Part shown: positions 46,017 to 46,725 of the stretch, piece after piece
How positions within the stretch are numbered: position 1 is the stretch's first letter
Layout: every line of letters begins with the position of its first letter
Assembly: GCF_988242995.1 (NCBI RefSeq)
Contig: NZ_OZ547043.1
Direction: 5' to 3' (one strand)
Length of the DNA: 64,000 nucleotides
Position numbers and translations under genes: made by a program
Notes under the pieces: model-generated
The model's input: only the letters and a program-made list of their open reading frames with translations
Told to the model about the DNA's origin: nothing
The model's database searches: none

Positions 46017-46725
46017 AAATGCGCCTGTAAGGCTCTGTTACCAGCCGCGCCCTAACAGGCGCATACGATCTGACATTTGCATTCAACTTCGTTACTTACG
46101 GCCCGTAAACGGGCTGCCCGGATATGGAATCGATAACTGCTCCCCCATTTTATCCTCTTCAAGCTGGTGCTTTATGTAGTCACGTATCTTCGCCGTGTTC
46201 TTACCCACCGTATCGACATAGTACCCTCGGCACCAGAACTCCCTGTTTCTGTATTTGAATTTCAAATCCCCAAACTGCTCGTAAAGCATCAGACTGCTTT
46301 TCCCTTTCAGATATCCCATAAAGCCGGATACGCTCATTTTGGGTGGGATTTCCACAAGCATATGGATATGATCTGCGCAGCACTCTGCTTCCAGAATCCG
46401 TACGCTTTTCCACTCACACAGCTTTCTCAAAATACTGCCTATCGCCCTACGCTTCTCTCCGTAAAACGCCAGTCTTCGGTATTTCGGCGCAAAAACTATG
46501 TGATATTTACAGTTCCAGCGGGTGTGCGCTAAGCTCTTTTCGTCCCCCATTGGGACCCCCTTTTGATTTCTTGTTTGACACTTGCAGTTGCCAGACCGCA
46601 AGGTGTTTTAACAAATCAAAAGGGGTTTTAATAACTGGCTCAAAGCTGAAAGCTTTCCGGAACCCCCAGCCTAGCTGGGGGTTTTCTGTGCACAATAAGA
46701 CGGCTCCTGATTCAGGAGCCGTTGA
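46017..46725 (-). mobile_element. IS200-type insertion sequence (IS200/IS605 family); boundaries approximate (about +/-20 bp)
   Basis: Single HuH transposase ORF, no terminal inverted repeats, perfect hairpins at 46661-46683 and 46701-46721 upstream of tnpA, structured 5' leader; about 709 bp fits between the ytfK terminator and the ytfL stop. Confidence 0.7.
46092..46550 (-). CDS. tnpA: IS200 transposase TnpA (Y1 HuH transposase)
   Basis: ORF 46092-46601; start at MGDEKSLAHTRWNCKYHIVFAPKYRR gives 152 aa; HuH motif HIHML and conserved Tyr region (CRGYYVDTVG). Confidence 0.92.
   Translation of the reverse strand: MGDEKSLAHTRWNCKYHIVFAPKYRRLAFYGEKRRAIGSILRKLCEWKSVRILEAECCADHIHMLVEIPPKMSVSGFMGYLKGKSSLMLYEQFGDLKFKYRNREFWCRGYYVDTVGKNTAKIRDYIKHQLEEDKMGEQLSIPYPGSPFTGRK

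Follow-up and report, generated by a model that had tools for sequence, protein, structure and literature searches.

The 711 bp at positions 45983-46693 of the window (the whole 64,000-nucleotide stretch of DNA that was analysed) are almost certainly a single intact IS200 element, which belongs to the IS200 group of the IS200/IS605 family, carries tnpA only and is located in the spacer between the convergent 3′ ends of ytfK and paeA (ytfL). It is an ordinary, textbook IS200 that is already known, and public assemblies already contain this very insertion. The finding has little importance beyond correct annotation, for which the limits 45983-46693 and the assignment of the two flanking hairpins made in this analysis should be adopted. 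In addition, the paeA site and similar ones are usable as strain-typing markers, and the 75 distinct sites compared here form a clean illustration of the preference of IS200 for the tails of intrinsic terminators, a preference that helps to explain how IS200 persists with little harm to the host.

Identity of the element and its transposase

A preliminary description of this DNA had proposed an IS200-type HUH single-tyrosine element between ytfK and ytfL (paeA), and this proposal was borne out by NCBIfam, by Rfam, by the RefSeq annotation of near-identical copies and by empty sites. The features of the element are the following.

45983-46693, minus strand: complete IS200, reading on the tnpA strand from the left end GTGCACAGAAAA... 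(46693) to the right end ...AGGATATTTATT (45983); from the comparison of copies and empty sites.
46661-46683, minus strand: left-end perfect hairpin (element nt 11-33; 10 bp; -18.7 kcal/mol).
46557-46625, minus strand: stem-loop in the tnpA 5′UTR (element nt 69-137; arms 46557-46572 and 46610-46625; -34.8 kcal/mol, z = -5.2).
46092-46550, minus strand: tnpA, encoding a 152-aa Y1 HUH transposase with H61-I-H63 and Tyr125; from NCBIfam, motif positions, Pfam and solved structures.
46019-46064, minus strand: second, longer imperfect hairpin between the tnpA stop and the terminal hairpin (14-nt arms, 93% complementary).
45992-46010, both strands: right-end hairpin CCTCCGGC-ATA-GCCGGAGG; from a terminator scan of both strands, the fold and all full copies.

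The 152-aa ORF with its HIH motif was present where it had been placed. The protein reads MGDEKSLAHTRWNCKYHIVF at its N-terminus, the H-I-H motif occupies residues 61-63, and Tyr125 lies within KIRDYIKHQ; a Y125F mutant of the IS200 TnpA is catalytically dead (PMC4513863). Against the NCBIfam equivalog model NF033573 transpos_IS200 (IS200/IS605 family transposase) TnpA scored 144.3 bits, the cut-off being 55. Furthermore, Pfam Y1_Tnp is recorded for a protein identical to the window TnpA, and the catalytic core aligned over its full length with solved Y1 transposases of the IS200/IS605 family, such as 2ec2 and IS608 2a6m, with E values of 1e-19 to 1e-23.

Conceivably, tnpA could encode a REP-associated tyrosine transposase (RAYT) tied to REP repeats instead of an IS200 transposase, and TnpA did indeed show a weak match to the model NF047646 REP_Tyr_transpos. 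However, this match reached 29.8 bits, which is far under the cut-off of 80 and compares with 144 bits for the IS200 model, and tnpA sits in a 711-bp unit that recurs at many loci, unlike the RAYTs, which are single-copy genes with REP flanks. With a score below the cut-off and a recurring unit in place of a single-copy gene flanked by REP sequences, the RAYT identity was rejected, and we grant it virtually no probability.

Having assigned the gene to the IS200 transposases, we considered the remainder of the element. The tnpA gene occupies 459 bp of the 711 bp, so there is no space for a second gene (tnpB, iscB), and the remaining ORFs are short overlaps without family support. The Rfam family RF01405 (STnc490) matched the leader end to end on the tnpA-sense strand (46560-46683; 146 bits, E = 3e-31). 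Terminal inverted repeats were absent, as had been noted before: neither of the ends GTGCACAG... and ...GGATATTTATT is the inverted form of the other, and in place of such repeats there are hairpins near both ends, at 46661-46683, 45992-46010 and 46019-46064. The sequence of the left-end hairpin was found once in the 64-kb window, which means that the window holds one IS200 copy. Both the perfect 10-bp hairpin at 46661-46683 and the long imperfect stem-loop over the tnpA leader had been recognised in the preliminary description, and both were recovered in our folds.

Together these findings comprise what distinguishes the IS200 group, namely a Y1 HUH TnpA of about 150 aa, tnpA as the sole gene, a length of ~707-711 bp, no terminal inverted repeats, no target duplication and the characteristic left-end layout. 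The window element resembles the IS200 of Salmonella and E. coli in its length (711 bp versus the published 707-711 bp), in its single 152-aa TnpA with HUH motif and Tyr125, in the lack of terminal inverted repeats and of target duplication, and in the STnc490 match. Its left-end hairpin at nt 11-33 and its stem-loop at nt 69-137 correspond to the terminator hairpin ('nts 12-34') and the 5′UTR stem-loop ('nts 69-138') of the Salmonella element (PMC4513863). It shares 99.4% identity with the widespread copies of E. coli, whose annotation reads IS200/IS605 family transposase, and is set apart from them by point differences only, TnpA having C58 and R123 in the window where R58 and Q123 are commonest. 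As for names, RefSeq uses IS200C for a copy with 95.6% identity, while the IS1541 of Y. pestis is 86.5-86.7% identical.

The better-characterised relatives IS608 of Helicobacter pylori and ISDra2 of Deinococcus radiodurans share with the window element a homologous Y1 HUH transposase (E ~1e-19 and ~1e-15 to the solved structures), hairpins near the ends and insertion 3′ of a short specific motif without duplication. In contrast to the window element, which lacks tnpB and follows a T-rich pentanucleotide after a hairpin, they carry tnpB and target TTAC and TTGAT, respectively. A further difference concerns orientation: GC skew is positive on the plus strand across the window, which places the tnpA-sense strand on the leading-strand template, opposite to the orientation favoured by IS608 and ISDra2.

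Ends of the element and ownership of the flanking hairpins

The limits were set by alignment with the empty sites of K-12 and strain N3, with the same locus of E. coli O158:H23, with the copy at rnb and with other IS200 copies. Further copies were gathered through a one-genome-per-species scan and local BLAST, and more than 50 other copies were compared. Similarity to the copies at rnb, mltD and fbaB and to about 50 copies of Y. pestis IS1541 broke off exactly at the end bases of the element, the ~50 full IS1541 copies (86.5-86.7% identity) aligning over element positions 1-711. In every copy the common sequence starts with GTGC and stops with AGGATATTTATT, and unrelated DNA lies outside. With junctions marked by a slash, the tnpA strand of the window reads ...ACGGCTCCTGAATCAGGAGCCGT CTTATT / GTGCACAG ... 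GGATATTTATT / TACTGCATAGC, while the K-12 spacer between ytfK and paeA, which has no insertion, reads ...GCAGTAATAAGACGGCTCCTGATTCAGGAGCCGT... The comparison with such an insertion-free ytfK-ytfL allele had been suggested at the outset, and once run it defined both the exact ends and the target sequence. The host features at the locus are the following.

45758-45964, plus strand: ytfK (DUF1107, stringent response modulator), from the ORF list, the K-12 annotation and alignment; cut off from its native terminator.
46694-46698, minus strand: target pentanucleotide TTATT (AATAA on the plus strand), host DNA that adjoins the left end on its 5′ side and closes the T-rich tail of the paeA terminator.
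46700-46722, both strands: native two-way ytfK/paeA terminator hairpin, host DNA, as far from the paeA stop in K-12 and N3 as in the window and terminator-like on both strands.
46738-48081, minus strand: paeA (ytfL), the gene upstream of the element and in the same direction as tnpA; from the ORF list and the annotation of homologous loci.

The ytfK start at 45758 was derived from the 207-bp length of the K-12 gene and the stop at 45964, and the paeA ORF ends at 46738, the position previously given for the ytfL stop.

These limits depart from those of the preliminary description, in which the element extended over 46017-46725, the hairpin ending at 46016 was the ytfK terminator, and the hairpin at 46701-46721 was an IS200 end structure that might replace or supplement the terminator of ytfL (paeA). 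Such limits would give a length of ~709 bp, which suits IS200, and both hairpins are indeed terminator-like. However, in the element-free spacers of K-12 and N3 the 46700-46722 hairpin is present, equally far from the paeA stop, and the 45992-46010 hairpin is missing, whereas the copies at rnb, mltD and fbaB and those of Y. pestis all have the 45992-46010 hairpin and none has the 46700-46722 sequence. Since the K-12 spacer carries it without any insertion, the hairpin at 46700-46722 is host DNA, and what had been taken for a structure of the element is the native terminator, unchanged from K-12. Conversely, the supposed ytfK terminator is the right-end hairpin of the element, absent from K-12 and N3 and present in the rnb copy and in every full copy at unrelated loci. 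We therefore see next to no chance that the limits 46017-46725 are correct, and use 45983-46693 throughout. The host hairpin is perfect, as had been stated, but it is longer than the 9-bp stem described (two 11-nt arms enclosing a single nt, or alternatively 10 pairs and a loop of 3 nt). The earlier length estimate came close to the true 711 bp because the two ends had been shifted by similar amounts (34 and 32 bp), that is, both were drawn ~33 bp too far toward paeA.

Insertion was exact. In the four pairs of occupied and empty sites (paeA, rnb, yafE/mltD and fbaB/gatY) no bases were duplicated or lost, the empty sites reading ...GCCGTCTTATT/(T)ACTGCAT. In the window an extra T (A at 45982) stands beside the right end, which is lacking in K-12, in strain N3, in the O158 copy and in the best 310-nt empty-site matches. 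This reflects a one-base length polymorphism of the ytfK-paeA spacer (CAGTAATAAGACGG versus CAGTAAATAAGACGG), the longer allele being the one into which the window element inserted. A 70-nt empty-site query, from which 45983-46693 had been deleted, matched 21 complete E. coli genomes at 100% identity, and at this stringency the longer allele is confined to these 21 of the ~5,400 complete E. coli genomes. The alternatives that the extra A at 45982 is a base of the element (712 bp) or the trace of an inexact insertion were ruled out by the extra-A empty allele in the 21 genomes: since this allele exists without the element, the A at 45982 belongs to the host, and the window element inserted exactly.

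Target preference and insertion history

To describe the target we compared 75 distinct left flanks with random positions in the same loci. The flank ended in TT at 73 of the 75 distinct sites, and the last five bases 5′ of the left end were TTTTT in 36, TTATT in 19 and TTGTT in 7 of them. The last 8 nt of the flank contained 6.1 T residues on average, versus 2.0 in the controls. Furthermore, the 42 nt upstream of the element had a mean folding energy of -16.7 kcal/mol, versus -7.5 kcal/mol in the controls, with 69% of the flanks falling under the 5th percentile of the controls. The target preference rests on these three measures, that is, the terminal TT, the T count in the last 8 nt and the folding energy relative to controls. 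When inspected by eye, nearly all 75 flanks consisted of a GC-rich hairpin followed by a T-run, and at every annotated E. coli site tnpA had the orientation of the gene lying upstream, the one whose terminator serves as the target. At paeA the orientation likewise suggests that it follows the direction of the terminator, a single copy proving nothing by itself. An automatic 'terminator-like' classifier was positive for 36 of the 75 flanks; it was set aside as too strict, because the fold often absorbs the T-tail into A/T pairs.

The preference of IS200 for terminators has already been reported and is not new. Terminator-like stem-loops at IS1541 sites were reportedly described in 1998 by Odaert et al. 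in J Bacteriol. In a 2025-26 preprint, terminator-like sequences were the ones most over-represented immediately upstream of IS200/IS605 elements (10.1101/2025.07.22.666184). New would therefore be only a mechanism based on mimicry of the right end, together with the rule at the nucleotide level. As a tentative proposal, which we consider plausible but somewhat doubtful, elements of the IS200 group may home, with nucleotide precision, on the last TT in the T-tail of a Rho-independent terminator and in the same orientation as the gene that it terminates, since on single-stranded DNA the hairpin with its T-rich tail would mimic the element's own right end (hairpin plus ATATTTATT). If this were true, an insertion would spare the host terminator, provide the convergent neighbour with a two-way terminator and create a fresh target, and both head-to-tail pairs and repeated independent hits on one terminator (two types at paeA) would be explained. 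The distance between the hairpin and the insertion point varies among targets, being 6 nt at paeA versus 9 nt at the element's own right end, so that the imitation of the right end by the target is a loose one.

Head-to-tail pairs were observed for IS1541 in Y. pestis NCTC5923 (at 1984-3403 of one locus and 11928-13347 of another), with the terminal TTATT of one copy joined without a gap to the left end of the next; at two further loci the arrangement is the same except for one extra T between the copies. These pairs suggest that the element's right end is itself used as a target. IS1541 resembles the window element in its 86.5-86.7% identity from end to end, in the same end bases (GTGC...GGATATTTATT) and in its placement after a hairpin and T-run, and differs in its host, in its ~50 copies in one genome, where the window has one, and in the head-to-tail pairs themselves.

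As stated in the preliminary description, the element is strain-specific and K-12 has no insertion at this locus, which was upheld by the K-12 annotation and by alignment. The sequence is thus far from being shared at this locus by all E. coli: K-12 is empty, and among 5,426 complete E. coli genomes the left junction at paeA is occupied in two (NZ_CP076709.1 and NZ_CP178682.1), more than 5,400 being empty. IS200 as such is common, since by megablast 2,041 of the same 5,426 genomes contain a full-length copy, annotated 'IS200/IS605 family transposase', with up to 36 matching places per genome. The window element itself, with zero differences and the same junctions, was found in GCA_051713105.1 and in the Logan assembly of ERR9565142. 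Both occupied complete genomes, in contrast, carry a variant with 95.6-96% identity to the window element and not an identical one. This IS200C-type copy, present in E. coli O158:H23 CFIAFB20140388 (NZ_CP076709.1; the IS200C annotation was read from the RefSeq record) and in VTB97379v (NZ_CP178682.1), agrees with the window element in locus, orientation, left junction (CTTATT/GTGCAC) and length (711 bp). It differs in sequence (95.6% identity, 31 differences) and in its empty-site allele, which lacks the extra T at the right junction, the flanks being ~99% identical. Judged from these sequences, the IS200C-type copy most likely represents a separate insertion at the same nucleotide.

The presence of the NZ_CP076709.1 variant at the same nucleotide could also indicate an ancestral insertion at this locus that almost all E. 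coli have since lost through exact excision, with the 96% variant as its diverged form. Excision by peel and paste is exact, and the site left behind would look as if it had never been occupied. However, the site is empty in more than 5,400 of the 5,426 genomes, the divergence of ~4.4% between the two element types contrasts with ~99% identity of their flanks, and one type occupies the empty-site allele with the extra T, the other the allele lacking it. We therefore regard an ancestral insertion as very unlikely; two independent hits on a preferred terminator target account for the observations more simply.

Compared with WP_001550737.1, the commonest E. coli variant, the window TnpA has C58 for R (codon 46377-46379) and R123 for Q, the latter two residues before Tyr125 and due to two adjacent base changes in codon 46182-46184 (CGT versus CAG). 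Elements that encode the same TnpA protein and deviate from the window element by 0-2 nt follow the terminators of ccmH, purL and a bhsA-like gene; two more elements of this kind, also deviating by 0-2 nt, lie at sites where the contig breaks at their left end. A copy behind recA has the same TnpA and differs from the window element at 7 nt. The occurrence of near-identical elements (0-2 nt) at several other terminators implies that this variant has moved recently, and the near-identical copies at several sites argue that TnpA with R123 and C58 is probably functional.

It is nevertheless conceivable that the copy survives as an immobile relic, or as a domesticated small-RNA source, and is kept for its 5′UTR/art200 RNAs and terminators, being no longer an active transposon. 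The unusual Q123R change close to the catalytic Tyr would fit this idea, and IS200 is described as mostly dormant, with the Salmonella 5′UTR being processed into regulatory RNAs (PMC4513863, PMC5435999). On the other hand, the ORF is full-length with intact motifs, the exact protein occurs at at least 5 other chromosomal sites with 0-2 nt differences, which indicates recent movement, and, with so few genomes occupied at the site, nothing points to retention by selection. A relic or domesticated copy is therefore improbable, and we continue to regard the element as a recently mobile IS200.

Two further observations were made while copies were being compared. Beyond their right ends, the IS200 copies of GCA_964045655.1 and GCA_005384585.1 run into the same DNA, which holds genes for a response regulator and an AIDA-type autotransporter, while their upstream flanks differ, one being the ccmH terminator and the other the purL terminator. 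This suggests that recombination between IS200 copies rearranged one of the two genomes. In addition, the exact 23-nt left-end hairpin of IS200 was found in metagenome-assembled genomes labelled Bacillota, Mailhella, Desulfovibrio, Oxalobacter, Peptococcaceae, Elusimicrobiaceae and Saccharibacteria. It usually lay less than ~130 nt from a contig end (in most cases under 20 to ~110 nt), and the resemblance to the window element covered the first 40-110 nt only (78-100%). These hairpins represent either related elements with a conserved left end across several phyla or contigs that were broken or mis-binned at the repeat.

Internal structures, movement and local effects

By homology with the Salmonella element, the hairpin at 46661-46683 is probably the two-way terminator of IS200 that shields tnpA from outside transcription. 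The 5′UTR stem-loop buries the ribosome-binding site AAGGGGGU, and in Salmonella the antisense RNA art200 covers the region of this stem-loop on the opposite strand (PMC4513863). By analogy with Salmonella IS200, expression would be kept very low: the left-end hairpin would halt transcription arriving from paeA, and translation of tnpA would be blocked by the stem-loop hiding the ribosome-binding site and by art200. A promoter scan found no sigma-70-like promoter for tnpA, in agreement with the statement that the tnpA promoter elements are undefined (PMC4513863). The STnc490 model fits the tnpA-sense strand, with the left-end terminator hairpin at the 5′ end of the model, whereas STnc490/art200 is defined as an RNA antisense to the tnpA 5′UTR (PMC4513863); the Rfam model may have been built on the strand opposite to the published small RNA.

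At the other end of the element, the hairpin at 45992-46010 is terminator-like in both directions, being followed by TTTTT on the plus strand and by ATATTTATT, the very end of the element, on the tnpA strand. Together with this terminal hairpin, the longer hairpin at 46019-46064 folds with -44.7 kcal/mol (z = -6.3), and the latter may be a transposase-binding structure. A match of the Yersinia sRNA family Ysr202 in Rfam to 45954-46015 on the plus strand was rejected: it scored 29.8 bits, compared with a gathering score of 315, it covered only the two ends of the model and skipped 221 positions, and its 3′ part lay on the right-end hairpin, as expected of a generic terminator-hairpin match.

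Movement of the element would follow the single-strand 'peel and paste' route, by homology with IS608 and ISDra2. TnpA, with its HUH motif and Tyr125, would cut one strand 3′ of the T-rich pentanucleotide of the left flank and 3′ of the terminal TTATT. The excised element would form a single-stranded circle, and this circle would be pasted 3′ of a similar T-rich motif after a hairpin on single-stranded DNA.

At the locus in the window, the element lies directly 3′ of the tail of the paeA terminator (CTTATT), with tnpA and paeA in the same direction, and as judged from the sequence the paeA terminator probably stays intact after the insertion. It is ytfK, and not paeA, whose terminator was displaced. 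Transcripts of ytfK most likely now end at the right-end hairpin (CCUCCGGCAUAGCCGGAGG plus UUUUU), from 28 nt past the stop codon, instead of at the native terminator. In the K-12 spacer, the region between the ytfK stop and the shared terminator contains a 17-bp tandem duplication (AAAGTGCTATGCAGTAA twice, at ~3795-3830 of the K-12 spacer locus), whereas the window (45967-45983) and strain N3 have one copy of AAAGTGCTATGCAGTAA only. The left-junction match of NZ_CP178682.1 consists of two pieces spanning 96 nt, which suggests that the 17-bp duplication can coexist with an IS200 insertion.
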